Shown here one piece after another: positions 1 to 49,356 of a stretch of 64,000 nucleotides of DNA (positions within the stretch are counted from its first letter, which is position 1; each line of letters opens with the position of its first letter). A program made the translations under genes and the position numbers. Location: IMG/VR virus record IMGVR_UViG_3300019487_000026, positions 25,344 to 89,343 of that record. The stretch is one strand, 5' to 3'. The notes beneath the pieces are model-generated. The model saw only the letters and a program-made list of their open reading frames with translations. It was not told the DNA's origin and ran no database searches. The stretch comes from a virus.

Positions 1-104
1 CGTCCGTCAATACGGATGATCACAGGCGTTCGACGCAAAAGTGCGCCTTGGGTTGTGGCTTCGTACTCTTTCATACGATCGCCGAGAGTGGTTTTGTCTG
101 TCAT
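1..104 (-). CDS. Thg1-like tRNA(His) guanylyltransferase / 3'-5' polymerase, N-terminus only (runs off the window)
   Basis: Manual translation MTDKTTLGDRMKEYEPQPKAHFLRRTPVIIRIDGR matches the Thg1/TLP N-terminal pattern (RMKxYE...IRIDG); AGGAGG RBS and TTGACA-17-GAGAAT promoter upstream. Confidence 0.85.
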   Translation of the reverse strand, partial: MTDKTTLGDRMKEYEATTQGALLRRTPVIIRIDG

Positions 105-215
105 GGGTTTACCTCCTTCGAGATAGACAAAACATTCTCACATGGAACGGGTTGGTTGTCAAGGGGAAACCCAGTTGGACCCTCAAAGGCATAAATATCG
201 CAGGAGGAAAACACT

Positions 216-569
216 ATGAGCGACTATGATCCAGAGCATGATTTCGATCGACGAAGCGATGTAGAAAGCCGTCTTGACGCTCTTGAAATCGCTCGGGCAA
301 CCCAAAATCTTCAGCTGAAACAGACGACTGAGGAGCTCAGTACGGGTAAAGTCAAGTTCCAGACAATTGTTGATGCTCTCCACGATCAGCGAATTGAAAT
401 TGAACTACTCAAAACAATGCGAGAAGACATTGTTCAGATCAAAGAATGCGTTACGAAACTGAAGACCGCCGAACTTGAACGGAGAGGTGTGTGGAAGGTT
501 GTTGCTGTTGTTTCAGCTGTAATCACCTTCATCGTTCAGGGCTTGATTATGTACTTTACGTCGAAGTAA
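216..569 (+). CDS. Coiled-coil protein with C-terminal TM helix (possibly holin-like)
   Basis: ORF track; TAAATA and GGAGG upstream; hydrophobic C-terminus. Confidence 0.6.
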   Translation: MSDYDPEHDFDRRSDVESRLDALEIARATQNLQLKQTTEELSTGKVKFQTIVDALHDQRIEIELLKTMREDIVQIKECVTKLKTAELERRGVWKVVAVVSAVITFIVQGLIMYFTSK

Positions 570-1329
570 TCTCTTCACACGCTACGATCCAATTCTTAAC
601 AAAATCGCTTCGAACGATGTCGTGATGTGTGAAGTGAATCACACTGAATTCTGGCATGCGTGAAACTACCTTGATATAATCTTCCATTCCGCTTGTATCG
701 AGTTTGCTTTTTCGAAGATCTGTCTGTGGCAAGTCGCCTACAAAGATCATTCGAGAGTGAACACCCAACCGCGTCATAATTGAATTGATTTCGTGGAAGT
801 TCATGTTCTGACCTTCGTCGACGATCACAATAGAGTGATCCCAAGTCAAACCACGAATGAAGGATGTCGTACAGAACACGACTCGTCCACCTGCCTTCAT
901 ATCCTCGTAGGACGATTGACGGCCTAGAAAATCCGCAAACATCTCTTGGTACGGAAGCTCATATAACATGGACTTTTCTTCAAGTGTACCGGGTAGGAAG
1001 CCTTGATCTCGTGTCGGAACAGCTGATCGAACAATGATGATTTGATCGATTGGGCTATCCTCACGGAGGAGTTCGTTTAGGGCCAGATAGATGGCGATGT
1101 AGGTCTTACCGGTTCCAGCAGAGCCGTGGGCACAAATGTGTTTGCCGGCGAGAAAATCGTGAAAGAATTCGTTTTGTGTAGGTGTTAGTGGTTTAATGTG
1201 TCTCAAATCGTGCTTACTCCATTTCTTGCGATGAGGTCCATCTTCTATAGCTTTTCCATTAAGAATAAGTGCGCGGGACAATTCCGCGATCCGTTCATTC
1301 CGGACGGATTTTCGGCTTCTTTTGGACAT
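556..1329 (-). CDS. phoH: PhoH-family ATPase
   Basis: GSAGTGKT Walker A, GFLPG, RGLTW, DEGQN, GDxxQxD, DIVRS motifs; start moved to the ATG at 1329 behind GGAGG. Confidence 0.95.
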   Translation of the reverse strand: MSKRSRKSVRNERIAELSRALILNGKAIEDGPHRKKWSKHDLRHIKPLTPTQNEFFHDFLAGKHICAHGSAGTGKTYIAIYLALNELLREDSPIDQIIIVRSAVPTRDQGFLPGTLEEKSMLYELPYQEMFADFLGRQSSYEDMKAGGRVVFCTTSFIRGLTWDHSIVIVDEGQNMNFHEINSIMTRLGVHSRMIFVGDLPQTDLRKSKLDTSGMEDYIKVVSRMPEFSVIHFTHHDIVRSDFVKNWIVACEEITST

Positions 1330-1469
1330 AGTGAGCCTCCTTGGTAAGAAAGATACGGCGGGTTTACAGCAGGATGGAACTGCAGAAAAAACTTTGAACA
1401 AGTGCAATCAGTCATGTTTGTATTTATAATTCGCAGGGAAAAAGTCCCCTTTCCCTTTGTAAACAATGC

Positions 1470-1769
1470 TCACTTGTTCCAGTTGTCTTTTGCTCCCAAG
1501 GAATAAATATTACCAAAGCCAAGCTGAACAGCATAGTTCAGTGCAGCTCGTAAGTCTTCGTCGTCGTTTGTGTCGGCGAAAAAAATCAGTTGTGTGTTTT
1601 TGGGATGTTTTAGGAGAGACGAAATTTGTCGGAGCGAGATATTGATCGCACCCGGCAACGTGCCATCTCGAAACGAGGTCGGTGGACGAACGTCAATAAG
1701 AAGCCCACCTTTCTTTTCGATGAGCTTCTTTGCCTTCATTCCATTAATTTTTTGTCCAACAAACATCAA
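1470..1769 (-). CDS. Rhodanese-like domain protein
   Basis: LIDVR...G.LPGAINI and GF.NIYSL pattern; no obvious catalytic Cys. Confidence 0.8.
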   Translation of the reverse strand: MMFVGQKINGMKAKKLIEKKGGLLIDVRPPTSFRDGTLPGAINISLRQISSLLKHPKNTQLIFFADTNDDEDLRAALNYAVQLGFGNIYSLGAKDNWNK

Positions 1770-2407
1770 TAGTCCAAATTGTCATGGGGAAAATCGGTCC
1801 CCCCAAATGCATAGCTTTCTTCAACCTTTGCTCTAGCATCACCACCCTCTAGGATTTTTCTTTCGGCATCAACATTTCGGTCAATTGTAGCTGTCGCATT
1901 GAATTGACGACCTTTGTTGCGAGCACGAAGCTTTGCTTGATTTGTTTCTAGGATTTGTTCCCACGATACACCAAGCGTATCGACCATGATAGCTTGATAC
2001 CAGGCGAGATCACCAAGTTCTTCTTGGAGATTGACTGGGTCCATTTGGGGCCATGACTGTAGTTGTTTATGCATTACGTTAAGAAGCTCTGTGGCCTCTG
2101 TTGCGATGCCGATGATTGCGTGAAACAAGCGAGGATCAATAGGTTGCTTATAGTCTTCATTGCGGAGGGGCCGATATTCACCAGCACTGAGACGATTTGC
2201 ATTTTCTGCGAGCAGCCCAACTTCATGATTCCATTTTTCAGGTGCAACAGGCTTTCCGTAGAAAACATTCTTTTTGACCATGTCAAGCAGATTTCCGGCG
2301 GAAATCATTGCTCCAAGAACTCGTGAGAGAATTACAGGATCGGCTTGAACTGCATCAATGCGACTTTCGGTTTCAATCGCACCTTGAACGTATTCTTGTA
2401 GATTCAT
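1766..2407 (-). CDS. MazG-like NTP pyrophosphohydrolase
   Basis: HAIIGIATEATEL, EELGDLAWY, N.AKLRAR motifs. Confidence 0.85.
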   Translation of the reverse strand: MNLQEYVQGAIETESRIDAVQADPVILSRVLGAMISAGNLLDMVKKNVFYGKPVAPEKWNHEVGLLAENANRLSAGEYRPLRNEDYKQPIDPRLFHAIIGIATEATELLNVMHKQLQSWPQMDPVNLQEELGDLAWYQAIMVDTLGVSWEQILETNQAKLRARNKGRQFNATATIDRNVDAERKILEGGDARAKVEESYAFGGTDFPHDNLDY

Positions 2408-2480
2408 TTTTATTGTTCTCCTTGGTTGTTCAACATTATAAGTTGTTCAAGCAAGGTTCACAACTTGAGCCATTTATCTT

Positions 2481-2582
2481 TGGAGCGGATACCGAGAGTC
2501 GAACTCGGGACTGGACCTTATTATAAGCACTTTGTCAAATGCTCATAGGCAAGGTTCCGTTTTACCACTAAACTATATCCGC
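2481..2582 (-). tRNA. tRNA-Gly(GCC) with a 28-nt hairpin insert (2520-2547) between positions 36 and 37
   Basis: GCGGATA/TATCCGC acceptor stem, D and T arms and CCA present; removing the insert gives a 74-nt tRNA with loop TT-GCC-AA. Confidence 0.85.
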
Positions 2583-2670
2583 CTAGTATGTTTCGAAAGA
2601 GGTTTGCAGTATTTACGATCTAACGTATAATGTCAACGGGATACATAAATATGGGTCAAAAGGACCAAAC

Positions 2671-3423
2671 ATGCGGTATCGAACGATTTGGTTGAGCGAC
2701 ATACATCTCGGCACTCGCGGCTGCCAAACAGAACAGCTTCTCGATTTCCTGAAGAGCAACGAAAGCGAATACCTCTTCCTTGTTGGTGATATAATTGATT
2801 TCTGGTCGCTAAAAAGAGTCCCATACTGGCCAAGGTCGCACAATACAATTGTTCAAAAAATTCTCCGTAAAGCTCGCAATGGTACCTCGGTGATTTTCAT
2901 TCCAGGCAACCACGATGAAATTCTTCGAAACTATTTGAATCACTCTTTCGGCGACATTCGATTATTTGAAGAATACACACACGTGCTGGCTAATGGAATG
3001 AAGGTACATTGTTTGCACGGCGATATCTTTGATATCATCACAAAATATCATAAGTGGGTGGCCGTTCTTGGTGATGTTGCCTACGATTTTCTTTTGTGGC
3101 TAAATCGCAACTTTAATTGGTTCCGAAAAAAGCTCGGAATGGGCTACTGGTCGATTTCGGCCGCAATCAAACTTGCCGTCAAGCAAGCTGTGAGCTACAT
3201 TAGTGATTTTGAAAACAGTGTGATTGAGTATGCAGAGATCAACAACGTTGAGGCGATCCTGTGTGGTCATATTCATCACGCTGAAATCCGACAAAGTGGA
3301 AAAGTTTTATACATTAACACAGGCGACTGGGTCGAGAGTTGTACGGCAATTGTCGAACACTTTGATGGTCGTTTAGAACTAATACGGTGGACAGATGAAG
3401 CAAAAGATATTGATAATAACTGA
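2671..3423 (+). CDS. LpxH/PlcP-like metallophosphoesterase (putative phospholipase C)
   Basis: SDIHLG, GDIID, GNHD, HGD, GHIH, NTGDWVE motifs. Confidence 0.85.
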   Translation: MRYRTIWLSDIHLGTRGCQTEQLLDFLKSNESEYLFLVGDIIDFWSLKRVPYWPRSHNTIVQKILRKARNGTSVIFIPGNHDEILRNYLNHSFGDIRLFEEYTHVLANGMKVHCLHGDIFDIITKYHKWVAVLGDVAYDFLLWLNRNFNWFRKKLGMGYWSISAAIKLAVKQAVSYISDFENSVIEYAEINNVEAILCGHIHHAEIRQSGKVLYINTGDWVESCTAIVEHFDGRLELIRWTDEAKDIDNN

Positions 3424-4399
3424 TGCGTGGGAGCCACAGGTCAATGGTGTTGTTCGAACACTAAAGACAACAGTTCAACATCTAATTGAAAAAGACTATG
3501 ATGTTTTTGTGATTCATCCTCAGATGTTCTGTAGTGTTCCGCTGCCGGGCTATAACGAAATTCGTTTATCACTCTTTCCTCGTCGAAGAGTCGGGAAACT
3601 GATCAAAGAATTTTGTCCGGATTATATCCACATTTCAACGGAAGGTCCTCTTGGTTGGGCTGCACGCAACTATTGCGTGAAGCATAAACTCGGCTTCTCA
3701 ACCGCATATCACACAATGTTTCCAGAGTACGTTAACATTCGGTGGGGCCTACCAGCATCATGGGGCTACAGTGTTGTTCGTAAATTTCACAAGCCGGCGG
3801 GGCGAGTGATGGTTGCCACACAAGCATTGAAAGAACAACTTCAGCTTCATAGTTTCAAGAACTCATTTGGGGAGTGGACTCGGGGCGTCGATCATGAAAT
3901 GTTCCACCCAAAACGTCGAACGGCGAGTGCTCGACCGTATGCTCTATATGTTGGTCGTGTGTCTCACGAAAAGAATCTCGAAGCATTTCTCTCGTTAGAT
4001 CTTCCCGATCTCGACAAGATTGTTATTGGCAAGGGACCACATCTTGAAGCGTTGCGAGCGCGGTTTCCCAAGACGTTCTTTATTGGTGAGCGAAAAGGTG
4101 AGGAGCTTGCAACGTACTATGCGTCAGCAGAAGTATTTGTGTTTCCAAGCAAAACAGACACGTTTGGTCTTGTTATGATTGAATCGCTTGCTTCCGGAAC
4201 ACCTGTAGCTGCTTATGATGTAGCTAATACGAGGGCAATTCTGTATAAAACAACTGGAGCATGCGAAGAGGATCTTGGCGTAGCGATTACCAATGCTCGA
4301 AAGCTATCCAGAAATATGTGTAGGCTTGCAGGAACTACGTTGACGTGGCAACGTGCAACGGGGCAGTTTTTGGCGAACTTGGTTCCTGCCTATCCGTAA
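3395..4399 (+). CDS. GT4 glycosyltransferase (Agt-like glycolipid synthase)
   Basis: TDAWEPQVNGVVRTL, VGRVS.EKN, FPSKTDTFGLVMIE motifs. Confidence 0.9.
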   Translation: MKQKILIITDAWEPQVNGVVRTLKTTVQHLIEKDYDVFVIHPQMFCSVPLPGYNEIRLSLFPRRRVGKLIKEFCPDYIHISTEGPLGWAARNYCVKHKLGFSTAYHTMFPEYVNIRWGLPASWGYSVVRKFHKPAGRVMVATQALKEQLQLHSFKNSFGEWTRGVDHEMFHPKRRTASARPYALYVGRVSHEKNLEAFLSLDLPDLDKIVIGKGPHLEALRARFPKTFFIGERKGEELATYYASAEVFVFPSKTDTFGLVMIESLASGTPVAAYDVANTRAILYKTTGACEEDLGVAITNARKLSRNMCRLAGTTLTWQRATGQFLANLVPAYP

Positions 4400-4808
4400 A
4401 CAAAATTCCGTCGAGATGGTCAATCTCGTGTTGAATACAAGCGGCATCAAGACCCTTGAGAAATGTTGTGTGTTCTTCGCCCGACGATTCAAAAAATTTC
4501 ACCCGAACCTCTTGAGCTCGTCTCACGTAGCAAAATTTACCAGGGGATGAAAGACAACCTTCGTAAGACAGTTGCTCACCAATCCGCTCGAGAATTTCAG
4601 GATTGACAAGAACGTATGGCCACTCAGCCGTTACGATAAGTCGAATTGATTTACCAACTTGTGGCGCTGCCAGTCCGATGCCATTATGCATGTACATTGT
4701 TGTGGCCATGTCAACTGCAAGATTCCATAGCTCGTCGTCGAACTCCGTCACAGGTTGTGCGACAAGACGGAGGATCGGATCAGTGTCAGGGAGCAAGGCT
4801 TCAATCAC
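4335..4808 (-). CDS. def: Peptide deformylase
   Basis: GIGLAAPQVG, EGCLS, QHEIDHLDG motifs. Confidence 0.95.
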   Translation of the reverse strand: MIEALLPDTDPILRLVAQPVTEFDDELWNLAVDMATTMYMHNGIGLAAPQVGKSIRLIVTAEWPYVLVNPEILERIGEQLSYEGCLSSPGKFCYVRRAQEVRVKFFESSGEEHTTFLKGLDAACIQHEIDHLDGILFTDRQEPSSPKTAPLHVATST

Positions 4809-5016
4809 GGGGAGCGATTTTGAAAGGTGGGAGTTGTGACATCAATTTGTTGAATTCTTCATGAACACCGAGCATCTGAGCCAATTCAACAACGATAAGG
4901 ACATTTTTCATATCGTCCTCGGCGTTCCCACAACGTTTGAAGTCACGAAGTAAAATCAAAGCAAGGGCGAGTTGTTCTCGCCCTGCTTCGTTCAGATCAT
5001 TTAACGTCTTTGCCAT
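4801..5016 (-). CDS. Hypothetical protein
   Basis: ORF coupled to def. Confidence 0.55.
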   Translation of the reverse strand: MAKTLNDLNEAGREQLALALILLRDFKRCGNAEDDMKNVLIVVELAQMLGVHEEFNKLMSQLPPFKIAPRD

Positions 5017-5020
5017 TGAT

Positions 5021-5605
5021 CTAGTGTGGCTTTGGCGGGTTGAGCAGACGTGAAATCGGCTTGACCTGCTTCAACAAGAATTCCATCTGATCCGCAAGAA
5101 TGTTGCGATTCATAAGAATCAAGTATTCAGCGCGGTTCGGCGCATACGGCACGTAGAGCAACTTCATGTGAGCTTCTTCCGGAGTACGGTTGTCCTTCAC
5201 CTTGTTGCAACCACCACAAGCAGTTACGACGTTTTCCCAACGGTCCTTACCACCACGCGAGCGCGGCGTCACGTGATCACGTGTCAAGTCTTCGTACTTG
5301 AACATGCCACCACAGTACGCACACATCTGATGGTCGCGACGGAAGAGGGCACGGTTGGTCAGCACTGGCGTGCGGTGAATGTGCGTATCAGCAACTTCAC
5401 CAGCAACAGCAATGATGGAGTTCAGGTCCATAAACGAACGGTCGCCCGTTAGTCGTGAACGACCACCGTAGACAGTGTATCCGTCGGTACCGACTGCCCA
5501 CGCAACGAGATCTTTCGCGTAGTAATACACGGCGTCTTCGTACGTAATCCAACGGCATGGATTTCCAGCCTTGTCGAGCTGGAGAATCAGCGGATGTTCA
5601 GCCAT
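5021..5605 (-). CDS. HNH endonuclease
   Basis: CAYCG, TRDHV.PRSRGG, NVVTAC..CN..K; ATG at 5605 behind GAGGAGG. Confidence 0.9.
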   Translation of the reverse strand: MAEHPLILQLDKAGNPCRWITYEDAVYYYAKDLVAWAVGTDGYTVYGGRSRLTGDRSFMDLNSIIAVAGEVADTHIHRTPVLTNRALFRRDHQMCAYCGGMFKYEDLTRDHVTPRSRGGKDRWENVVTACGGCNKVKDNRTPEEAHMKLLYVPYAPNRAEYLILMNRNILADQMEFLLKQVKPISRLLNPPKPH

Positions 5606-5679
5606 AATACACCTCCTCACTTGTTTCACAAGTATTTACGTGTGAATCTGTGGAACTGTACACAGAATATGTAATAAGG

Positions 5680-6021
5680 TCAACTAATTGTCTCTTCATT
5701 TTCTTTCTCCTGTAAAAGCTTGAATTTCCGAAGTGGTTTACGTTGTTGATCATACAAAGGCTGTGTGGCAATTGCCGTATTGCCTGTGTCATAATCTGGT
5801 TCGAAAAACAATTCAAATTCAATTCCATGTCGTCCAAGATATTGTGCAACATTCATTAGGTGGTGCTGATCCTTCACACCACACAGCACAATGTGCAATG
5901 GTTGTTCGGGTTTTTCGAATCGAAAGCTCGCTTCACTTGCTGCATGAGAAGCTTGCACGATTTGTTGTGGGTGCGACAAATCTTCTCGGACGAAAATATA
6001 CATATATGGAATCTAGCTCAT
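5680..6021 (-). CDS. Pth2-like peptidyl-tRNA hydrolase with an in-frame TAG at codon 3 (6013-6015)
   Basis: YIFVREDL...QIVQASHA...FFEPD...TAIAT.P pattern; GGAGG 7 nt before ATG-AGC-TAG-ATT-CCA-TAT-ATG; ATG overlaps the upstream TGA. Confidence 0.75.
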
Positions 6022-6398
6022 TTGTGTGCCTCCAAAACTGTAAGGATGTTTGTCCAATGTTCTTCGGTGAGTGTTTCACCATAGCGCATGCAGAACGGAA
6101 CCGCCCAGCCATACTTCTGGCCTGACCTTTCGTGATGCTCACGCTGTGTTTTGCGATGTTTGATGTTGAATTTGAGATTGTTTACTGCGTACTCAAACGT
6201 ACGCCATGGATTTTTATTGTAGTGGCTGTTGATTTTCTTTTCGTTCACGAATGGCGAAAACCCGCAACGTAAATCACGGCCTCGAATCAGATTGTAAAGA
6301 ACGTGATCTTGCGTCGTGGCGATCTTACCACGCGAAAGTTGGCGGAATGCTTCTTGGTACTGCTTAAATTGCTGTTTGTCAGGAATGACGTAATTCAT
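6018..6398 (-). CDS. Hypothetical protein cotranscribed with the Pth2-like gene
   Basis: ORF with AGGAG RBS. Confidence 0.75.
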   Translation of the reverse strand: MNYVIPDKQQFKQYQEAFRQLSRGKIATTQDHVLYNLIRGRDLRCGFSPFVNEKKINSHYNKNPWRTFEYAVNNLKFNIKHRKTQREHHERSGQKYGWAVPFCMRYGETLTEEHWTNILTVLEAHK

Positions 6399-6458
6399 TT
6401 TGTAAACTCCTAGTCAATGGTTAAAGGTAAAAACCGCGGAAAATGCCGACTAGGGCGT

Positions 6459-6545
6459 TTACGGAGGGATCCTAGGTCTACAAACCTAGGTGAACGGGCG
6501 AATCTACCCGCGTTTGACTGGCTGAATCATTGTTTCTTTAGTCAT
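6459..6545 (-). promoter_or_regulatory. Leader uORF MTKETMIQPVKRG*IRPFT*VCRPRIPP-TAA with two in-frame amber codons
   Basis: GAAAGGA RBS; TAG at 6504-6506 and 6486-6488; CCTAGTCGG just after the TAA is complementary to TTGACTAGG overlapping the next RBS. Confidence 0.7.
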
Positions 6546-6566
6546 GTGAAAATTCCTTTCGACGAA

Positions 6567-6595
6567 AGTATATATGTCTTGTCCCTCTTTGTCAA
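6567..6595 (-). promoter_or_regulatory. Sigma70-type promoter for the amber-gated operon
   Basis: TTGACA-17 nt-TATACT. Confidence 0.85.
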
Positions 6596-6615
6596 CGAGG
6601 CCGATAAATATCTAC

Positions 6616-6921
6616 ATGAAACTCAACGAGATTACCCGCCGCGCCTTCTTGGGCGCCATTCTAGGAACCGCTGCAACAGTCGCAATGGGGCAGCCTCATC
6701 GTCCGTATGACCCGAACAACGATCCTTGGGATAAGCTTCATCAAGGTATGACATACGGAGAAGTTCACGCGTTGCTTGGTGAGCCGACCCGCATAAAAAC
6801 ATGGGGTGAAATAACGAACTGGGAATACGGGATGGCAACAGTTCGATTCTGGAAAGGCAAACTGACCGATTGGTCTTATCCTGGTGCTAAAAAGAATCGG
6901 GGTCCGTCGCATCCGAAGTAA
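6616..6921 (+). CDS. Small SmpA/BamE-like protein with MKLNEI start and a TRRAFL Tat-like segment
   Basis: GMTYGEVHALLGEP motif; TAAATA upstream. Confidence 0.6.
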   Translation: MKLNEITRRAFLGAILGTAATVAMGQPHRPYDPNNDPWDKLHQGMTYGEVHALLGEPTRIKTWGEITNWEYGMATVRFWKGKLTDWSYPGAKKNRGPSHPK

Positions 6922-7126
6922 TCACGACCATGTCGTCGGTTCGAACATTGCGAACGAGTGCATGTGGTCTTGTGCCCTTAACAATGAAGCAGGTGCAATG
7001 ACACTGTGGTCGAAACATACATCCTAGAATTTCAAGTGCTTTATCAACTGCTTCGTCAATTCTTTTGAAGGGGTGGGCTTGGTAATTCTTTCCAGTTGAG
7101 CGTTCTACACGAAAAAAGAAATCCAT
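6887..7126 (-). CDS. Hypothetical protein
   Basis: ORF with AAGGAG RBS. Confidence 0.55.
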   Translation of the reverse strand: MDFFFRVERSTGKNYQAHPFKRIDEAVDKALEILGCMFRPQCHCTCFIVKGTRPHALVRNVRTDDMVVITSDATDPDSF

Positions 7127-7200
7127 TGGATGGTCTCCTTATTGTTTTGCAATAGTTTAAATTGTTAAAACAGGTAAAACAACTACAAGAAAGATTTTAT

Positions 7201-9846
7201 TTATGTTGCGTTAGGAATGACGGACTTAAGCGTGACATAACCCAACCAAACCCAGTTTTCAGCCGCAACACCTGTAACAGTAATTGCTAGAGCTTCATTG
7301 GTATTGTCGGCGGTAATATTTGCATCCGTGGTTGCATCAGACTCCGCCAGTACTGTTTTGGTTGGCGCGACGAGTAGTGTTGTATTATTTGCGTTGTCAC
7401 GGAAAAGCACCCCGTCCGTAAACTTGTAAACAGCGTAATCATTATTAGCAACAGTTTGGCCTTGACCAATAACCACGGCGTCAAAATGCCACACCCTACT
7501 TGCCGAGATTGTAAGTCGAGCGCTGTCAAAGGTGCGTAGTTCCGATGGAGTTGCACTAGTCGTACGTAGACGCATTTGAACAACAGCTTCGTGCGAAGCA
7601 AAATCACCACCAGCAGCGCCAGTCGTTAGCTGACGCTCCACAGCGCTTCCAAACTCGGCGATACGAGCTGTGGCAGCACCTGTGCCAGTAAAGAAGGTTC
7701 GTGGTTGTGCGTTCGTAACGGTATAACCCATTGTAATGGCTTGTGATTCATTACTAATCGCCAAGGTACCAATAGCAATCGAATCACCCGCAGTTACGCC
7801 AGTTTCAGCACTTGGGCCTAAAGCAACAGAAAATTGACCACTTGCATTTGCGGAATTACCGATGGCCAGTGGCGATTGAATCCCATCTGCTACAGCACCA
7901 GCACCTATCGCTATTGCGCTTGGTCCGTCAATAATGGTACTTACTCCGATCGCAATGGAATTGGCTTCGCCGGTACCAGTCCCATTGGCGGATTTTCCGA
8001 TTGCAATTATGTTTGTGCCCTGTGCGTTTGCACTACTACCTATAGTAATCGCTTCTATTCCATTTGAAGTAGCAGCAATACCAATTGCTATAGCTCCGAA
8101 TTGGTTTGAGCCTGAACCTGTACCAATTGTGATTCCAAAGGTTGCATTTGACTGAGAATTTGGACCAATTACAACGCTATTCGTTGCTGTGCCAAATTGT
8201 CCTGCACTTGCACCAGTACCCCACACGACAGCGTCATCGGCTTGATTGATCGCTCCCGAGCCGATTGCAACTGCATTATTGCCTGACGCATTAGGTGGTG
8301 TCGCCGCAACAGGATTAGCATCGTAGAGTGCCGGGGAAACTGAAGACCATGACGGTGCAACGCCTGGGCCACCCGATACGATTGCTTGACCAGCCGTTCC
8401 CGATGCACCCTCGACCAACCACTCACCTGTTGAAAGAATAGTAAGTCTTGGCAAACCTGTAGTGGACAACGCAATACTAGCTCCAACTTCTAGTGTATCA
8501 CCATTACCACCTGTGATTGTAACGATACCGTCAGTGCCACCACCAGAACCAGCTGTGATATTGATATCACCACCAGCCCCAGAAAGGCTTGTACCACCAT
8601 TAATGTTGACAATACCAGCAGCACCCGGTCCTGATGAATTACCACCCGCAAGAGTAGTTATTCCTGCTGTTCCAACAAACGTGGCACCGGATGTTATATT
8701 GATACTGCCCGCATTAGTTCCAACACCATTTGTACCACCCGTTATATTAACGTCGCCTGGACTACCACTACCACCCGCAGTCCCCGTTGCTATATTAACA
8801 TCACCGCTATTACCAGTACCAAAAGCACTTTGACCACTGGTTATGAAAACAGAACCCCCCTCGGCACTGTTTGGCGTACCAAAACCATCTCCTCCTGCGA
8901 GATACAGATCCCCACCAGTAAATCCAGAACCACTGGTAAGACCAGCTCGAAGGACAGCATAAGCTCCATTCATACCAAATGAATCTGCTGCCACAAGAAG
9001 AACACCCGTACCTGGAGATACTGCAAAGTTTCCAAACAACGAAAGGGCGCCATTTATTGGATCGAATGTAAAGTTTGGTGAACTATCAATACCAGCGCCC
9101 GTTCCGTATACGATTTGGTTTGCTGGTTCCGCTGGTGTTGGTGCGACGGTATTAATCCAATTCGTTCCATTGAATGACAAGAATTGGCCTGATGATGGTG
9201 CTGTGAGAACAACATCTTGAAGTTGATCCAAAGAAATACCACTCTCGCCTTCAACAAACAACACACTGAAGTGATCTACGTCTAGCGTTGCACCAACACC
9301 ACTTGTTGCACCTTTTGATACTTGTGCAATCGGAGCACCTGAGCCACCAGGAAGATTCGTTGAGATTGTATGAACGAGAATACCATTGTTATAGAACTGC
9401 CAGCTTGCACCTGTATTGACGGCACGGAGAGGTCCGGCGATGATAAAGGCTGGACCTGTTGTCTGGCCGCCTCCATTACTACAAAAAGGAACTGCAGTCG
9501 TTGTCGTGATCATCCAGCCAACGGCATCTATGTAGCTCGGTGAGCCGCTGTCAGCAATCATTATCAATCCATTATCACCTGGTCCTGCGGATGTGATTGC
9601 AGCTATCCACGAAAATTCGTCAACGCTTGTAAAATTGATTGGTGTTGGAAGTAAACCACCAGCAGAAATGCCTGTTGAATGACCACCCGTGATTCCAGTG
9701 GTAATTCGCACTGCACCAAACGAAGCATTCGCAACGTTCGTAACAGTTCCGCTTCCGACTGCATTGAAAAGTGTCCAACCTAGACCCGTTCCTGTTACGA
9801 AATCATCAAACAAACCACGAGTTGCTGTGTCAAATGGTACGGCCAC
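7201..9846 (-). CDS. Tail fibre / adhesin-like protein with Gly-rich repeats and YadA-head-like (AIAIG) repeats
   Basis: 881 aa; G(D/N)(V/I)NITxG repeats and about 14-residue AIAIG repeats; TAAATA upstream. Confidence 0.75.
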   Translation of the reverse strand: MAVPFDTATRGLFDDFVTGTGLGWTLFNAVGSGTVTNVANASFGAVRITTGITGGHSTGISAGGLLPTPINFTSVDEFSWIAAITSAGPGDNGLIMIADSGSPSYIDAVGWMITTTTAVPFCSNGGGQTTGPAFIIAGPLRAVNTGASWQFYNNGILVHTISTNLPGGSGAPIAQVSKGATSGVGATLDVDHFSVLFVEGESGISLDQLQDVVLTAPSSGQFLSFNGTNWINTVAPTPAEPANQIVYGTGAGIDSSPNFTFDPINGALSLFGNFAVSPGTGVLLVAADSFGMNGAYAVLRAGLTSGSGFTGGDLYLAGGDGFGTPNSAEGGSVFITSGQSAFGTGNSGDVNIATGTAGGSGSPGDVNITGGTNGVGTNAGSINITSGATFVGTAGITTLAGGNSSGPGAAGIVNINGGTSLSGAGGDINITAGSGGGTDGIVTITGGNGDTLEVGASIALSTTGLPRLTILSTGEWLVEGASGTAGQAIVSGGPGVAPSWSSVSPALYDANPVAATPPNASGNNAVAIGSGAINQADDAVVWGTGASAGQFGTATNSVVIGPNSQSNATFGITIGTGSGSNQFGAIAIGIAATSNGIEAITIGSSANAQGTNIIAIGKSANGTGTGEANSIAIGVSTIIDGPSAIAIGAGAVADGIQSPLAIGNSANASGQFSVALGPSAETGVTAGDSIAIGTLAISNESQAITMGYTVTNAQPRTFFTGTGAATARIAEFGSAVERQLTTGAAGGDFASHEAVVQMRLRTTSATPSELRTFDSARLTISASRVWHFDAVVIGQGQTVANNDYAVYKFTDGVLFRDNANNTTLLVAPTKTVLAESDATTDANITADNTNEALAITVTGVAAENWVWLGYVTLKSVIPNAT

Positions 9847-15050: not shown

Positions 15051-15126
15051 TGCGGGTTAGAGCAGAAGTAGCTCGCCTGGCTCATAACCAGGAGGCCGTG
15101 GCGTGCAATTCCCACACCCGCTACCA
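15051..15126 (+). tRNA. tRNA-Met(CAT), initiator-like (1:72 mismatch)
   Basis: CCTGG-CTCATAA-CCAGG arm, CCA end. Confidence 0.85.
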
Positions 15127-20156: not shown

Positions 20157-20230
20157 GCGCGATTAGCTCAATGGGAGAGCAATTGTCTCTAAAACTTTGG
20201 TTGAGGGTTCGAGTCCCTCATCGCGCACCA
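20157..20230 (+). tRNA. Amber suppressor tRNA (anticodon CTA)
   Basis: GCGCGAT/ATCGCGC acceptor stem, canonical D and T arms, loop CT-CTA-AA (20187-20193), CCA; anticodon stem has two U-U mismatches. Confidence 0.8.
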
Positions 20231-24494: not shown

Positions 24495-25427
24495 ATGAGT
24501 AAAATGCGTCTCCTAAAGGACATCTACGAAATGGCACGAACAGCACAAGTATGCGCGAACTGTGGTCGTGAGCTTGGTGTAGGAAAGAACCATTTCTACT
24601 ACAAAGATAAAACCACAGGTACAGCCAAATACAAGTGCAAGGGAACAGGTACTTTCTTCTCAGCTGCAGCTCCTGGAACTGCTCCAAGCACTCCTGGTGC
24701 TTCGACTGCTCTTCCAACAGCACCAGCCGCGACACCAGCACCGACAACTCCACGAGTTCCAACACCAGCAAAAGCACCCAGGGCGCCGATTCCGGGGGGT
24801 TCGGGCACCGATCGAATCAAGCAGTGGCTCGACGAGCACAAGATTACTGGATATACGATTCGAAGTGATGGTCTAGTTGATGTTTCGGGCCATGTGATTC
24901 TCAATGGATACGGAGAGTCGACGCTTCCGGTCAAATTTGGAAAGATCACTGGTGAATTCCATGCTGGTGCAACTGCTCTGACAACAATGGATGGCATGCC
25001 TTCACACACAACCGGCGACTGCATGCTTGACACATCGAAATTCACATCATGCCACGGTCTACCAGCCAATATGGAATGTGAAGGATCGTTTGCTTTGTTT
25101 GGCAACAAACAGATGACGAGCTTGGATGGGATGAACATCAAAACAGTTGGAAAGATTCTTTATCTTTCAAAGCTACCTCTGATCAAAGACCTGAAAGATA
25201 TTCACGAGCGTGTTCATCATGTTGGGGAAACGATCGTCCTCGCAAAGACGCCAATCGAATCACACGTCTTGGGACTTATGTTGATTCCTGGTCTGAAGAA
25301 CGTTGAGGGACTAGAACCAAAAGGCGTACTGGACATTTTAAACAAATACCTAGCTGGAGATCGAGATCTTTATATGTGTCAAGATGAGCTGATCGACGCC
25401 GGGTTTCTACCGTTTGCGAAGCTCTAA
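24495..25427 (+). CDS. Protein with an N-terminal Cys motif, Pro/Ala linker and LRR-like repeats
   Basis: LPVKFGKITGEF, LTTMDGMP repeats, CQDELIDAGF C-terminus. Confidence 0.7.
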   Translation: MSKMRLLKDIYEMARTAQVCANCGRELGVGKNHFYYKDKTTGTAKYKCKGTGTFFSAAAPGTAPSTPGASTALPTAPAATPAPTTPRVPTPAKAPRAPIPGGSGTDRIKQWLDEHKITGYTIRSDGLVDVSGHVILNGYGESTLPVKFGKITGEFHAGATALTTMDGMPSHTTGDCMLDTSKFTSCHGLPANMECEGSFALFGNKQMTSLDGMNIKTVGKILYLSKLPLIKDLKDIHERVHHVGETIVLAKTPIESHVLGLMLIPGLKNVEGLEPKGVLDILNKYLAGDRDLYMCQDELIDAGFLPFAKL

Positions 25428-28400
25428 TGGACAAGAAGAATCAAGTCGTAAAACTGATGGGTAAGACGATGCGCCACATGGCGGGCCGTTCACAAGGCCG
25501 CTACAAAGGTGCAGGTCTTCTACTCGCAGGTGATCCGGGGGTGGGGAAGGCCCAACCATTGTATTCAAAAGTGTTAACGCCAACTGGTTGGAAGACAATG
25601 GGCGAGGTTGTTATCGGTGATGATGTTATTACACCGTCTGGGGATGTTGCGAAAATTACGGGCGTGTTTCCGCAGGGTAAGAAAGACATTTATACTATCA
25701 CGTTTCACGACGGCAGTCAAACGCAATGTTGCAAAGAACACCTCTGGAAGTGTTATTATTCACCATATTCTACACAACCAGCGGAAGAACATATTGTTTC
25801 AACGGAGCAACTTATAGACTTGCTCAACACAATGAAAAATAAAGGTTATAACAACAATATTTCAATTCCTCTCACAACAGCAGTTGAATATTCGACTCAA
25901 AATTATGAGATTGATCCATATGTTTTGGGAGCACTATTGGGTGATGGATCACTATGTGGTAGCACGATCCGGTTTACATCTGTCGACAGGGAAATTGTCG
26001 AACGTATCCAAACGTTTTTGCCAGAGCAAATGCAAATTAATAACATTTCTGGATCCGTAAAAGAACATTTGATTGTGCGGAAACCAGAATTTTTTAGAAC
26101 ACGCCAAGAAAGCAAATTTGTTTCTATACTGAAAAAACTTGAATTATACGATAAACATTCACACGAAAAGTTTATCCCTGATGTCTACAAACACGGTTCT
26201 GTTGACCAGCGGTTTGCTCTTTTACAAGGTTTGATGGATACAGACGGGACAGCCACCACACAACAAGGACGACCCTCCTTTTGCTCAACAAGCTATCGTC
26301 TTGCAAGAGACGTGCAAGAATTAGTGTGGTCGCTTGGTGGTTGCGCATCTATTAGCACAACACACCCAACTTACACCTATAGGGGTGAAAAACATCAAGG
26401 AAAAACAGCATATGTTGTGCTGATAGCACATCCAACACCAAAAATGCTTTTCTCGTTGTCTCGCAAGAAAGACCTGTGTCGTGAGACACACGGTAATGAT
26501 CGTATTACCTTACGACGACGTGTTGTTTCTATTCAACAAACTGGATATGAAGAAGCCCAATGTATTTTAGTTGATCATCCCGATCATCTGTATATAACTG
26601 ATGGTTATATCGTTACACACAACACGACATTCGTTGAGCTCATGTCGGGCTTGCTTGGCCTTCCAGCAGTCATCATTGAGATTCCCCACATTACGGAAGA
26701 ACACTTGATCAATATTCCGTTCATCGTTTATAACGATGTCGACAACACTACAAAGCAAGGTGTGTCGCAAATGAAACCAGCAGGCCAGGGATCTGACGAA
26801 TATGAGTTGGTTCTGGCACAGTCGAATTTGTACACGCAAATTATGGCTGAGAAGAAAACTCCTGATGCGGAGTATCTCAAGAAGATGAAAACAGCTCCTC
26901 GCTATGTGCAAGATATGTTCCGCTTTTACGGTGGAAACGAAACAACAATTCCGCCGGTAATTCATGCTCTTCGTTCGAAATATGAAAACCTTCTCTTCTT
27001 GGATGAATATTATCGCAATACGTCAATGCGTATTCGAAACATCTTGCGTTCGCTGCTGAACCGTAAGATCGGTAGCCACCCACTACCCAAAACAACGTAC
27101 ATTATCTATGCATCAAACATGAACGATGCTGGTCTTGAAGATATTCCGGACAATCATCAATTCAAAGAAATGGAATATAAGACTCCTTCAAAGAATGACT
27201 GGTTTGACTGGTTAGAATCCAACGTTGTCCACAAAACTGGGAAGCCCCTACAACCTGAAGTTCTTCAGACCTTTCGGACGCTTCTAAAAGACGAAGACAT
27301 GAGTCATACGGATGTCGACACAGGGATTCGCACCTCACCTCGACGCTGGGAACAGTTGATTCTGTACGTGAATGCAGCGTTGCCAGTTGACAACCAAGCA
27401 GAGGCAAAGGCTTTGCTGACGAACGTACGAAACAACTTCATTGGTTTTGAACATGGAGCTGATGACAAGTGGCGTCACAGTAGTATTGAAAAGAAAGTTG
27501 TCAAGGCAGTGGCAAAACTGATTCAAACAACTTCTAGTATCACGACAGCACCCACCGACGTGCATGAAATGCATGATTGGCGAGAAACTCTAACACATCA
27601 ACTTCGTATGCGAATGCGGTTGGGTGATCATCGTAAGTATGTGCCGGTCGTTTCGGGTCCTCCAGGTATTGGTAAGACAACACAAGCTGAAATCATTGCA
27701 ACTAAAATTGCGAATGAACACGGCTGCAAGTTCGGTCTTCGGGTGATTGACATCGACATTGGGGAAATCTTTTCAGAAGATGCAACAGGTCTGCCTCTTC
27801 CTGGTCGTCGTTTTGAAGAGCACGGACAACGTCAAATCACTGTGAAATTCTCATTTCCTAAACTGTATCATCAAATCATGACGATGATTAAGGAAAAGGA
27901 TCATGATTTTATTGAGTCCTTGAAAGACGAACACGGAGACGAAGCACCGAAATATATTCAAGAATACGAAAAACAACGCTGGAAGTACCTGATCTTCTTT
28001 GACGAAATTAACCGTGTCGACGAAAACACGTTTAATGCGTTGCGGCGTGTCATTCTCGAAAAGAACTTCGGTCCTGCTGGTGATGCTCACGGTTCGATGC
28101 TAAAACTTCCGAAGGAAGCAATTATCTTTGCTGCAATGAATCCAGAAGGAACTGGTACAATTCCATTAACGGCTCACTTTCGTGATGTTGTTGATCTGGT
28201 TCCGTCAAAGGGCTCATGGCAAATGACGAGAGCATACCTCCGTACGCTTTCATCCGGCAAAGGCAATCTTCGTGATGTTGCTCTAAACATTGCGGACGCG
28301 TTCGTCGATAAATTCAAGAGTCGCGATTCGAAATATCATTCTCAAGAAACAGCATTTTGGTTGGATATTGGAACGCCCGTGTATATTTCACCTCGTGAAT

Positions 28401-29137
28401 ATGAAGACGTTATTGAGACGCTTGTTGATGAAATGGAAGCTGGAATCAAGGACGCCCTTGATGATCCTGATATGAAGGAGGAAGGCTTACGAGATGCGAT
28501 GGACGATGTTGTTGGTGAAGCACTAGAAGATTCCTTGGCATTCTCGTTCCGAAAAGGTCATACGAATAAAGAGGAATTCATGGCAAAGGTACGGCCGTGG
28601 GTTGCTTCTCTTGATGATCGCGTGTTTGGCGGCCTTGTCTCGAAGAAAACCAAGGCACCGACAATGGCAGAGTCGCTGGCTCGATACTTCGAAGGGACCG
28701 ACTTGACGCACATGAGTGACGACGCGAACTTTGCGCACATCAATTTAAGCGCCAATAATGCTCAGTTTGTTGAAGAAGTTAAAGAACTGCTCACAACACG
28801 CTTTACCGATGATGCATCCGTGCAGAAGTATTTGCTTGAAAAAACGCACTCCAAGATCGTTCTTGATAAAGCTGGTCGCCAACTGAAGACCAACCCAGGC
28901 GAAAAGGTTTCCCTCTTTACGAATTTCGTGTATGCTGTCCTTTATACGCTGCACATTCACAATCATCAGTTCGATCGCCTTGTAGCGCTCGGAAAGGCAA
29001 TTTCACAGTCGTTCTCCAACATTGTGAAAACCTTGGAGCAAAAAGGTCGCTTGAGTGCTGACATTAAACGTCAGACTGACCGTGAGGTGACGCGGATCCG
29101 AACAGAAGTACCTGAACTTGTTCAAAGCTTGACGTAA
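25427..29137 (+). CDS. Tandem MoxR-like AAA+ ATPase containing an intein
   Basis: GDPGVGK/T and GPPGIGKT Walker A; FLDE and FFDEINR Walker B; SPRRW and SPREY. Confidence 0.88.
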   Translation: MDKKNQVVKLMGKTMRHMAGRSQGRYKGAGLLLAGDPGVGKAQPLYSKVLTPTGWKTMGEVVIGDDVITPSGDVAKITGVFPQGKKDIYTITFHDGSQTQCCKEHLWKCYYSPYSTQPAEEHIVSTEQLIDLLNTMKNKGYNNNISIPLTTAVEYSTQNYEIDPYVLGALLGDGSLCGSTIRFTSVDREIVERIQTFLPEQMQINNISGSVKEHLIVRKPEFFRTRQESKFVSILKKLELYDKHSHEKFIPDVYKHGSVDQRFALLQGLMDTDGTATTQQGRPSFCSTSYRLARDVQELVWSLGGCASISTTHPTYTYRGEKHQGKTAYVVLIAHPTPKMLFSLSRKKDLCRETHGNDRITLRRRVVSIQQTGYEEAQCILVDHPDHLYITDGYIVTHNTTFVELMSGLLGLPAVIIEIPHITEEHLINIPFIVYNDVDNTTKQGVSQMKPAGQGSDEYELVLAQSNLYTQIMAEKKTPDAEYLKKMKTAPRYVQDMFRFYGGNETTIPPVIHALRSKYENLLFLDEYYRNTSMRIRNILRSLLNRKIGSHPLPKTTYIIYASNMNDAGLEDIPDNHQFKEMEYKTPSKNDWFDWLESNVVHKTGKPLQPEVLQTFRTLLKDEDMSHTDVDTGIRTSPRRWEQLILYVNAALPVDNQAEAKALLTNVRNNFIGFEHGADDKWRHSSIEKKVVKAVAKLIQTTSSITTAPTDVHEMHDWRETLTHQLRMRMRLGDHRKYVPVVSGPPGIGKTTQAEIIATKIANEHGCKFGLRVIDIDIGEIFSEDATGLPLPGRRFEEHGQRQITVKFSFPKLYHQIMTMIKEKDHDFIESLKDEHGDEAPKYIQEYEKQRWKYLIFFDEINRVDENTFNALRRVILEKNFGPAGDAHGSMLKLPKEAIIFAAMNPEGTGTIPLTAHFRDVVDLVPSKGSWQMTRAYLRTLSSGKGNLRDVALNIADAFVDKFKSRDSKYHSQETAFWLDIGTPVYISPREYEDVIETLVDEMEAGIKDALDDPDMKEEGLRDAMDDVVGEALEDSLAFSFRKGHTNKEEFMAKVRPWVASLDDRVFGGLVSKKTKAPTMAESLARYFEGTDLTHMSDDANFAHINLSANNAQFVEEVKELLTTRFTDDASVQKYLLEKTHSKIVLDKAGRQLKTNPGEKVSLFTNFVYAVLYTLHIHNHQFDRLVALGKAISQSFSNIVKTLEQKGRLSADIKRQTDREVTRIRTEVPELVQSLT
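25550..26623 (+). mobile_element. Class 3 intein with LAGLIDADG endonuclease, inserted in the Walker A motif
   Basis: Starts Ala (AQPLYSKV), ends THN/T; HLW, QC and VTHN give the WCT triplet; LGALLGDG and LQGLMDTDG. Confidence 0.9.
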
Positions 29138-38436: not shown

Positions 38437-38510
38437 GCGGGTATAGTATAATGGTATTATGCGACATTGCCAGTGTTGAGACGTGGGTTCGATTCCCACT
38501 ACCTGCTCCA
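38437..38510 (+). tRNA. tRNA-Gly(GCC), no insert
   Basis: Cloverleaf, CCA. Confidence 0.9.
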
Positions 38511-41704: not shown

Positions 41705-41779
41705 GCGGGTGTCGTATAGTGGCTATTATCTCTGCCTTCCAAGCAGAGGAGGAGGGTTCGAATCCCTCTACCCGCTCCA
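41705..41779 (+). tRNA. tRNA-Gly(TCC)
   Basis: Cloverleaf, CCA. Confidence 0.92.
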
Positions 41780-41793
41780 ATAAGGATTGTGTC

Positions 41794-42234
41794 ATGTACT
41801 ACCACAGTGGAAGTGGGGTCATTGCTTATGACCCTTGGCGTGGCGACATGAAAAGTCGCACCGACTGGTGGTGTATCGTTGATGTCGACAAAGAGATTAC
41901 CCGTTATTATCGCTGGTGGCTTCAGCGGGAGAAACACATCTACCTTCAAAAACCAGCTTGGGATGCACACATCTCAATCATTCGTGGTGAGTACGCTTGT
42001 GCTTCAAACCCCCAACTATGGCGAAAGTATCAGGGGCAGACTGTTAATTTCCAATACGAACACGGACATATCCGTTGTGAACCTGACAAGGATGGAGGAG
42101 TGTATTATTGGATAGATGTAGAGGCCCCATTGCTCAATCAGATTCGTGCCGAGTTTGGACTTCCTCGAGGGTGGCGTTTTCACATCACAATTGGTCGAAC
42201 GTACGACTACGTGGCCCGTGTGCCAAAAAGATAG
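41794..42234 (+). CDS. 2H phosphoesterase-like protein
   Basis: Two HxS/T motifs (AHISII, FHITIG). Confidence 0.7.
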   Translation: MYYHSGSGVIAYDPWRGDMKSRTDWWCIVDVDKEITRYYRWWLQREKHIYLQKPAWDAHISIIRGEYACASNPQLWRKYQGQTVNFQYEHGHIRCEPDKDGGVYYWIDVEAPLLNQIRAEFGLPRGWRFHITIGRTYDYVARVPKR

Positions 42235-49253: not shown

Positions 49254-49356
49254 GCTGGCTTAGCTCAGTTGGTAGAGCTCCTGATTTGTTGAATGTCTTT
49301 TTTGAGGACATTGAACAATCAGGAGGTCGAGGGTTCGAGTCCTTCAGCCAGCACCA
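49254..49356 (+). tRNA. tRNA-Thr(TGT) with a 27-nt hairpin insert (49290-49316) between positions 36 and 37
   Basis: Removing the insert gives a canonical 76-nt tRNA-Thr with CCTGA-TTTGTAA-TCAGG. Confidence 0.9.

Follow-up and report, generated by a model that had tools for sequence, protein, structure and literature searches.

What is a 28-nt hairpin doing directly behind the anticodon of a phage tRNA gene, and, if it is taken out of the transcript, by what means? A tRNA can lose an intron by three established routes, namely group I self-splicing, group II splicing, and cleavage by an endonuclease followed by ligation at a bulge-helix-bulge motif; bacteria and their viruses are not known to use any but the self-splicing kinds. 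The gene that raises the question lies in a 64,000-nt stretch of DNA (the window) within an 89-kb jumbo-phage fragment; the phage is uncultured and comes from cave metagenomes (IMG/VR; CheckV completeness of the fragment 35%). The fragment encodes ~30 tRNA genes and many genes for translation and nucleotide metabolism. Megablast of window positions 1-8000 against a phage collection returned no match, and the protein encoded at 47721-48866 has no relatives in viral contigs. The nearest cultured phage is Ralstonia phage RsoM2USA, on the basis of one protein with 38.6% identity, and none of the 42 tRNA matches in its genome is ~100 nt long.

An insert in the anticodon loop of a tRNA-Gly gene

The interrupted gene and the features that bear on it are as follows.

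2481-2582, minus strand: tRNA-Gly(GCC) gene including the insert and an encoded CCA, 102 nt (Rfam RF00005, 49 bits)
2548-2582, minus strand: 5' exon, tRNA positions 1-36, ending with the anticodon GCC (2550-2548)
2520-2547, minus strand: putative mini-intron of 28 nt, with an 11-bp stem (U.G at rung 9, U-A at rung 10), a GACA loop and a 2-nt 3' tail, AU
2481-2519, minus strand: 3' exon, from A37 A38 to the discriminator U73 and CCA
2608-2636, minus strand: sigma-70-like promoter match TTGACA-17-AATACT, 25 nt upstream of the tRNA-Gly gene (consensus match only, 10/12)
38437-38510, plus strand: insert-free tRNA-Gly(GCC), a redundant isoacceptor in a tRNA array

The initial annotation, made from the sequence alone, had read this gene as a tRNA-Gly with a hairpin insert at position 36/37, and the structural part of that reading is borne out. 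On the minus strand, 2484-2582 is matched by the Rfam tRNA model (49 bits, E 1.9e-7), with 32 anticodon-loop bases left unaligned, and the layout listed above was read from the sequence itself. The proposed 11-bp stem with its 2-nt tail is recovered by folding: the insert alone reaches -11.4 kcal/mol (z -5.56), and 0 of 200 shuffles fold as well. Both the promoter motif, which matches the consensus at 10 of 12 positions (2636-2608, minus strand), and the insert-free Gly(GCC) gene that had been noted at 38437 are present.

With the insert removed, the sequence and the RF00005 match give a cloverleaf with a 7-nt loop, UUGCCAA, as expected of a functional tRNA-Gly(GCC), and the anticodon stem has a single A/C mismatch. 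The acceptor stem opens with G1-C72, C2-G71 and G3-C70 and is followed by discriminator U73, which together fit the identity elements of tRNA-Gly. Among 270 intron-free tRNAs of the phage family, the six closest are all Gly(GCC). Moreover, two relatives carry an intron-less Gly(GCC) gene at the same site, upstream of a MazG homologue, with the loop UUGCCAA or UUGCCAU. From the acceptor stem and U73, the nearest tRNAs and the intron-less genes at the same site, the gene is Gly(GCC) with an insert at 36/37, an assignment read from sequence comparison. The placement cannot slide because the junction bases differ. Plain ARAGORN does not call the gene at 2481-2582, and with its intron option the program miscalls it as Ile(aat) because several cut positions give a 7-base loop. 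In contigs from two cave-metagenome DNA runs, which are possibly the source of this DNA, the insert is unchanged; a search for RNA runs that contain this DNA returned none.

A small family of related inserts

A second interrupted gene occurs in the window.

49254-49356, plus strand: tRNA-Thr(UGU) with a 27-nt insert (49290-49316) at 36/37 (Rfam 60.4 bits; match 49254-49353, 100 nt)

Three further homologous inserts were found in related jumbo-phage contigs that were reached via the MazG protein and by insert-specific pattern scans. They interrupt Gly(GCC) in contig G011, Trp(CCA) in G008 and Gly(UCC) in G064. The five inserts have a common layout and fall into two sequence types: type A comprises the window Gly and G008 Trp inserts, and type B the window Thr insert and its homologues in G011 and G064. 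Alignment of the G011 gene with a near-identical intron-less orthologue leaves a single clean 28-nt gap (TTGCC/28/AA), and the same holds for the G008 gene and its intron-less orthologue (CTCC/28/AAA). The G008 Trp insert thus sits at 35/36, within the anticodon, and the remaining four at 36/37. A sixth insert, of 29 nt, was found in a G006 tRNA that resembles Val(UAC); it differs in sequence and fits a 1-nt rather than a 2-nt stagger. The family is narrow, with five members in four phage records. These members are related and may share a single ancestor, so that a feature present in 5/5 indicates conservation and does not amount to five independent trials.

When viral contigs were scanned with a pattern that allows tRNAs 20-38 additional bases, at least 119 stretches matched, mostly Tyr and Ile tRNAs of giant viruses with eukaryote-type introns. 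Rows with fewer than five anticodon-stem pairs, or with GTAG or TATG loops, were left out before folding, and the 16 phage-like stretches that were folded, from among the matches listed, had no common register. The type A pattern returned one chance match and one known member, and the type B pattern one known member and the new member in G064. In metagenome contigs the type B pattern matched 13 times, in no case within a tRNA, and all 13 are chance matches. The insert model, R1, recovered 5/5 known members as a control and added none to them in 509 kb of DNA from the phage family. Two long tRNA matches proved not to belong to this class: at G014:151543-151641 the Trp anticodon arm is intact and the D region is odd, and G008:62293-62390 has a long extra arm.

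The occurrence of the inserts in different tRNAs and genomes, and the sharing of two types among several genes, suggest movement, and HNH endonuclease genes lie nearby. Could the inserts then be palindromic mobile elements, of the MITE or REP kind, that landed in tRNA genes as DNA? We regard this as quite improbable. The hairpin relies on G.U pairs and folds only on the tRNA strand: the opposite strand of the Gly insert has essentially no fold (-1.4 kcal/mol, z +0.30), and with the insert model the sense strand scores 49.8 bits and the antisense strand 22.9. No further copies turned up outside tRNA anticodon loops in the 509 kb of the phage family, and the junctions have no visible target-site duplication.

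Register and covariation

In all five inserts the first base pairs with the third-last, which gives a hairpin with a 2-nt 3' overhang. This register is informative because the insert boundaries come from tRNA identity and intron-less orthologues rather than from the fold. In 4/5 the 2-nt tail also pairs with the two exon bases that precede the 5' cut, the exception being the window Gly gene, and the tail covaries with the anticodon (AC opposite GU, GG opposite CC). In these four, both predicted cuts would therefore lie within a continuous helix, 2 bp apart. The G008 Trp insert is displaced by one base relative to the tRNA and nevertheless keeps its register.

Covariation among homologous inserts, the check that the initial annotation had proposed, is present. 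When the five extended anticodon arms are aligned, 85.6% of cells are paired, compared with 63.3% in shuffles (0/500 as high) and 35-45% for slid partners, and 15 of 20 pairs are changed on both sides, figures that refer to a structure drawn from the same five sequences and that include anticodon-stem covariation, which is trivial between different tRNAs. The informative covariation is inside the insert and at the tail. The two type A members, for example, are three A-U/U-A flips apart, with their G.U pairs unchanged. Set against the roughly two helical turns, unbroken at the cut site, of a bacterial RNase III substrate, the Thr arm forms 19 pairs in the 44-nt arm fold and 21 in the whole-tRNA fold, plus two unpaired positions.

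The window Gly gene is the least canonical member. Its exon-side rungs -1 to -3 are all mismatched, its tail is unpaired with the anticodon, and a 2x1 internal loop interrupts its folded arm at the cut.

Are the inserts removed?

The composition of the tRNA sets bears on whether the inserts persist in the mature RNA. In the G008 genome, which has terminal repeats and is complete (350 kb), we count 57 Rfam tRNA matches and 60 ARAGORN calls covering 19 amino acids. Its sole tRNA-Trp is the insert-bearing gene, which ARAGORN names Pro(agg); the other 19 amino acids are served. In G006 (52% complete) the only Val gene is likewise insert-bearing, and no other amino acid is missing. The window Thr gene is the only Thr tRNA within the 89 kb. 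Given that these Trp, Val and Thr genes have no substitute in their records, we argue that the inserts are removed. The argument is weaker for the window Gly gene, which has an intron-free twin; given this twin and the unpaired cleavage region, its processing may be inefficient or fail altogether.

A contrary reading is that the insert is retained, either in a decaying or disabled copy or in an RNA that acts as a decoy for anticodon nucleases of the host, as a regulator or as a store of masked precursor. The insert-free Gly(GCC) in the same genome would fit such a fate, as would the unpaired cut region, which is peculiar to the window Gly gene, and the same phages hold many odd tRNA-like RNAs that are unable to decode. 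Yet the exons are intact (49 bits), a promoter-like site of its own precedes the gene, and its CCA is encoded. Sister inserts occur in the sole Trp and sole Val genes of otherwise full tRNA sets, and, unlike what is expected of a dead insertion, different tRNAs keep both the register and the pairing of tail with anticodon. On balance we consider retention rather unlikely.

The initial annotation had gone further and suggested a protein-spliced or nuclease-activated tRNA. What stands of this is a conserved, intron-like element that is unable to self-splice, as indicated by the homologues, the covariation, the strand-specific fold and the sole tRNA-Trp of G008; its splicing by proteins is putative. 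The geometry points to a type of nuclease that the annotation had left unnamed, RNase III.

Correspondence to RNase III substrates

E. coli RNase III cuts both strands of a helix and leaves 2-nt 3' overhangs with 5'-phosphate and 3'-OH ends (PMC1540722). According to that study, a substrate needs at least 11 bp from the cut to the tetraloop to react well, the minimal substrate yields a 28-nt product, and a single proximal-plus-distal set suffices to specify the site (PMC1540722). The distal box is UA/UG, with the UG pair stringently needed; a GC pair beside the scissile bond blocks catalysis, one at position 2 of the proximal box blocks binding, and internal loops can confine cleavage to one strand (PMC1540722).

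The inserts were compared with these rules, which are those of E. coli. The 2-nt 3' overhang, as a matter of geometry only, is found in 5/5 inserts. The Gly insert has 11 bp, a tetraloop and 2 nt, in total 28 nt, like the T7 R1.1 minimal substrate (PMC1540722). Among the others, the G011 and Thr inserts have 11 rungs each, one of them mismatched, and the Thr loop is 3 nt long; those of G008 and G064 have 10 rungs each. The U.G pair of the distal box is at rung 9 in 5/5 and the following U-A at rung 10 in 4/5, the rung number being our deduction from the T7 sequence and the available text of PMC1540722. Rungs 1 and 3 are A-U or U-A only, in 5/5, with no GC at the antideterminant positions of the proximal box. 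The resemblance to T7 R1.1 extends to U.G and then U-A near the loop, to A/U where GC inhibits and, in the four members with a paired tail, to a helix that continues beyond the cut (PMC1540722).

This correspondence can also be followed base by base. The 28-nt piece of T7 R1.1, taken from the T7 record, shares rungs 9-11 and is closed by a GNRA loop. No gap is needed to align it with the three 28-nt inserts, and MAFFT places one gap in each 27-nt insert; the only invariant columns are 9 and 18, the partners of the rung 9 U.G. We presume, from the 11-bp and 28-nt statements in the study above, that T7 RNA is cut at the end of this piece. Against the correspondence, the insert model has no match in T7 at E below 2.4 and none at R1.1.

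The inserts also depart from R1.1 in several respects. They sit within a tRNA anticodon loop, where both cuts would need ligation to give a working molecule, and cleavage here is predicted from sequence. Rung 2 is a G/G mismatch in three members. With three mismatched exon-side rungs and an internal loop at the cut, the window Gly gene resembles natural single-cut RNase III sites, and by analogy it may be cut in one strand. The structure, its conservation and covariation, its register and its fit to published RNase III determinants are direct observations on this family.

Candidate enzymes

No RNase III gene was found in any of five related phage records, of which two are complete, and so the nuclease would have to come from the host. 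The initial annotation had called for a search for ligases and endonucleases, and the outcome was mixed. RtcB is absent from the five related records (0/5), as is an EndA-type endonuclease (PF01974, tRNA_int_endo), which four archaeal control genomes do match, and we know of no EndA in bacteria. An ATP-dependent RNA ligase (PF09414) is present in all five.

These absences bear on whether the insert is simply an archaeal or eukaryal intron, with a bulge-helix-bulge and a splicing endonuclease, or a self-splicing group I intron. Its location in the anticodon loop is that of such introns. The folds, in contrast, contain no two 3-nt bulges 4 bp apart; the helix is unbroken or has a small internal loop, and 2 bp separate the cuts. 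The inserts lie at 36/37 or 35/36 rather than at 37/38, and neither tRNA_int_endo nor RtcB occurs in the five records. At 28 nt the insert is far below the size of a group I ribozyme (a few hundred nt), and an Rfam search at E up to 1 returned only tRNA. These readings are already contradicted by the tests made, and we give them almost no credence.

Two genes of this phage are of particular relevance to ligation and end repair.

G000:17778-18869 (this phage, outside the window, ~9 kb upstream of the Gly gene): HNH-Rnl2 fusion (PF09414, E 4.7e-23)
41719-42234, plus strand: 2H phosphoesterase (2H-SAK domain), an RNA-repair-type gene in the tRNA array (PF22547, E 7.9e-9)

The fusion protein matches phrog_24030, 'RNA ligase' (E 8.7e-120), and is predicted to combine an N-terminal HNH nuclease domain with an Rnl2-type ATP-dependent RNA ligase. 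Its HNH and KxDG motifs are intact, and EKLDGEN is invariant in 4/4 close homologues. The ligase has no sequence match in the PDB and no NCBIfam match. Rnl2-type ligases are known for sealing nicks in duplexes; sealing of an open anticodon loop would be a putative activity of this enzyme. The insert model found nothing (0/50) in 50 other phage records with an HNH-Rnl2 fusion, a sample of 50 of 76 fusion loci from which short or weak loci and already-searched records had been left out. The ligase thus occurs in many insert-free phages and is not specific to the inserts. An Acb1-like 2H enzyme adjoins the ligase, and kinase-like AAA_33 ORFs occur in 4/5 related records, so the gene content may also be compatible with a heal-and-seal route.

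These genes bring forward a variant in which the intron is real and the cut is made by a phage enzyme: either the HNH domain of HNH-Rnl2, in a cut-and-seal protein, or a nuclease that leaves a cyclic phosphate, with the ends then healed by kinase/phosphatase and 2H activities. HNH nucleases leave 5'-phosphate and 3'-OH ends, often with 3' overhangs. The catalytic motifs of HNH-Rnl2 are conserved in 4/4 close homologues, HNH matches cover residues 21-79 (PHROGs), and the AAA_33 ORFs, the 2H-SAK gene and the Acb1-like 2H enzyme beside the ligase would supply the healing steps. The HNH-ligase fusion is itself on record, described as lacking an explanation by Iyer et al. 2021 (PMC7824862). Against this, the sites lie within a helix in 4/5 members, which we would expect to be unfavorable for metal-independent loop nucleases, and the rung 9 U.G and the A/U-only rungs fit RNase III rules specifically. 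The fusion is present in the 50 other phage records without inserts, and RNA cleavage by the HNH domain is only putative. We consider a phage-encoded nuclease unlikely.

A possible splicing pathway

Host RNase III is the nuclease that we prefer, with due reserve: that the insert is a genuine short tRNA intron of jumbo phages, cut by host RNase III and sealed by a phage RNA ligase, is a plausible account, although we hold it with somewhat less than even confidence, as it is read from sequence. We infer the cleavage, the ligation and the identity of the acting enzymes as follows. The family would consist of 27-28-nt hairpin introns placed within the anticodon (35/36) or immediately behind it (36/37). 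Stacked in the precursor, the insert, the loop bases and the anticodon stem would form one long helix that buries the anticodon. Host RNase III could then cleave the two strands of this helix, offset by the 2 nt usual for this enzyme, releasing a hairpin with a 2-nt 3' overhang and leaving 3'-OH and 5'-phosphate ends in the anticodon loop. Such ends could be joined directly by a phage ATP-dependent RNA ligase, for which the HNH-Rnl2 fusion is a candidate. In the window Gly precursor the bases beside the cut sites would be unpaired, and single-strand cleavage or poor splicing is possible.

How would this compare with known systems? The introns of archaea and eukaryotes, which are removed by EndA/Sen and sealed by RtcB or Trl1, are also short and protein-dependent, also lie in the anticodon loop and also pair with the anticodon. 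The phage inserts differ in having no bulge-helix-bulge, a non-canonical position and no EndA or RtcB, and their ends would be 5'-phosphate and 3'-OH rather than cyclic phosphate and 5'-OH. Intervening sequences of 23S rRNA offer another parallel, in that an extra hairpin in a structural RNA gene is excised by RNase III. There the fragments stay unligated and are held by the ribosome, whereas a tRNA with a broken anticodon loop must be ligated. To our knowledge, the known RNase III sites in mRNA, in rRNA and in rRNA intervening sequences are not re-joined.

On the side of ligation, the T4 Pnkp/Rnl1 system and the repair sets of jumbo phages likewise include a phage ATP-dependent ligase able to reseal an anticodon loop (Iyer et al. 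2021, PMC7824862). The RNA-repair-set genes of the present phage are the HNH-Rnl2 fusion, 2H and NTase. In phage tRNA repair the ligase answers damage inflicted by the host (PMC7824862). The break at the insert would instead be programmed by a phage gene.

The closest precedent among phages is the 'enigmatic' tRNA introns of Lak megaphages, which Devoto et al. 2019 believed to be the first known from phages (PMC6784885). As far as the available text goes, those introns are also non-group-I inserts in phage tRNAs, are absent in close relatives and have no explained mechanism (PMC6784885). The Lak intron treated in the main text differs in being big enough for a tRNA-like fold and in its phage lineage and habitat (PMC6784885). 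The main texts of the literature that we searched describe no short hairpin introns in phage tRNAs and no RNase III-dependent tRNA splicing. The available text of a 2026 jumbo-phage review treats introns only in general terms, and PMC12880540 contains none of four tRNA-intron phrases. The insert is a real and conserved feature with a putative mechanism of removal.

More speculatively, and with more doubt than belief, we suggest that the family represents a third, protein-based route of tRNA splicing. Its element would be a portable RNase III site that masks the anticodon; RNase III would cut it out with a stagger of 2 nt, and a phage ligase would join the exons with no need for end-healing. 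The element would have moved between Gly, Thr and Trp loops, its tail being re-tuned to the local anticodon each time. It could serve as a gate that ties tRNA supply to expression of the phage ligase, or as a shield that protects a pool of precursor from host anticodon nucleases, and the widespread HNH-Rnl2 fusions of jumbo phages are possibly involved.

Independent of mechanism, the inserts affect how phage genomes are read. Standard tRNA finders miss or misname the insert genes, which are called Ile, Val, His or Pro, and phage tRNA sets and the codon-usage inferences drawn from them are therefore wrong where inserts occur. If the proposed pathway is true, it would be a new route of tRNA splicing, with a new role for RNase III and for phage RNA ligases. 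The 'enigmatic' tRNA introns of phages would then have an explanation too, and so, perhaps, would their HNH-ligase fusions.

A second insert-bearing tRNA and the RNA ligase of the window phage

window 49254-49356: tRNA-Thr(UGU) with a 27-nt hairpin insert at 36/37
G000:17778-18869 (L185:12578-13669, minus on L185): RNA ligase that carries an HNH nuclease domain at its N terminus

The tRNA-Gly(GCC) gene is not the only tRNA gene of the phage to carry an insert. The second, for tRNA-Thr(UGU), is the only Thr tRNA gene of the 89-kb phage fragment (G000). The helix of its insert arm is unbroken across both of the proposed RNase III cut sites, and tRNA-Thr(UGU) is therefore the better-formed insert tRNA of the fragment. 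Perfect TTGACA and TATAAT hexamers occur within the Gly(GCC) insert (window 2520-2547, minus). Because they are separated by just 7 nt, they are too close to serve as a promoter, and their occurrence is probably due to chance.

The gene for the HNH-fused RNA ligase lies outside the window, ~6.5 kb before its start, and adjoins a gene for an Acb1-like 2H phosphoesterase (G000:17103-17762). The HNH-RNA ligase fusion is present at 76 loci in large phage contigs.

Further genes of the window

window 15051-15123: CAU-anticodon tRNA
window 20157-20230: amber-suppressor-type tRNA with a CUA anticodon
window 25427-29137: AAA ATPase (1236 aa) with an internal LAGLIDADG domain

The CAU-anticodon tRNA was not called by ARAGORN despite its Rfam match (48 bits). 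The CUA-anticodon tRNA, which ARAGORN named Pyl, has homologues in three contigs of other phages (G006, G008 and G011). The LAGLIDADG domain of the AAA ATPase is possibly an intein. After the ATPase comes a DUF2201/VWA protein, and Ralstonia phage RsoM2USA encodes its closest cultured relative.

Inserts and unusual tRNA-like RNAs in related phages

L156:6466-6567 (G006), minus: Val(UAC)-resembling tRNA with a 29-nt insert at 34/35
L191:337-481 (G064): tRNA-Leu(AAG)-like gene whose anticodon loop holds a 61-62-nt insert
L157:224-349 (G006), minus, and L168:4861-4982 (G012), minus: tRNA-like genes with two tandem T-arm-like hairpins and encoded CCA
L156:17023-17151 (G006), minus, and L159:1586-1717 and L159:1021-1249 (G008): tRNA-shaped RNAs with the middle replaced by a module containing the words TTGCGTAG and CTTC

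The Val(UAC)-like gene is the sole Val candidate among the 54 ARAGORN tRNA genes in three stretches (60 kb) of a 183-kb contig; its insert is unrelated in sequence and folds to give a 1-nt stagger. The insert of the Leu(AAG)-like gene folds as two hairpins, the second of which weakly matches the model built from the family inserts (21.7 bits). The genes with tandem T-arm-like hairpins are not ordinary tRNAs, and the RNAs with the TTGCGTAG/CTTC module may be Y-RNA-like.
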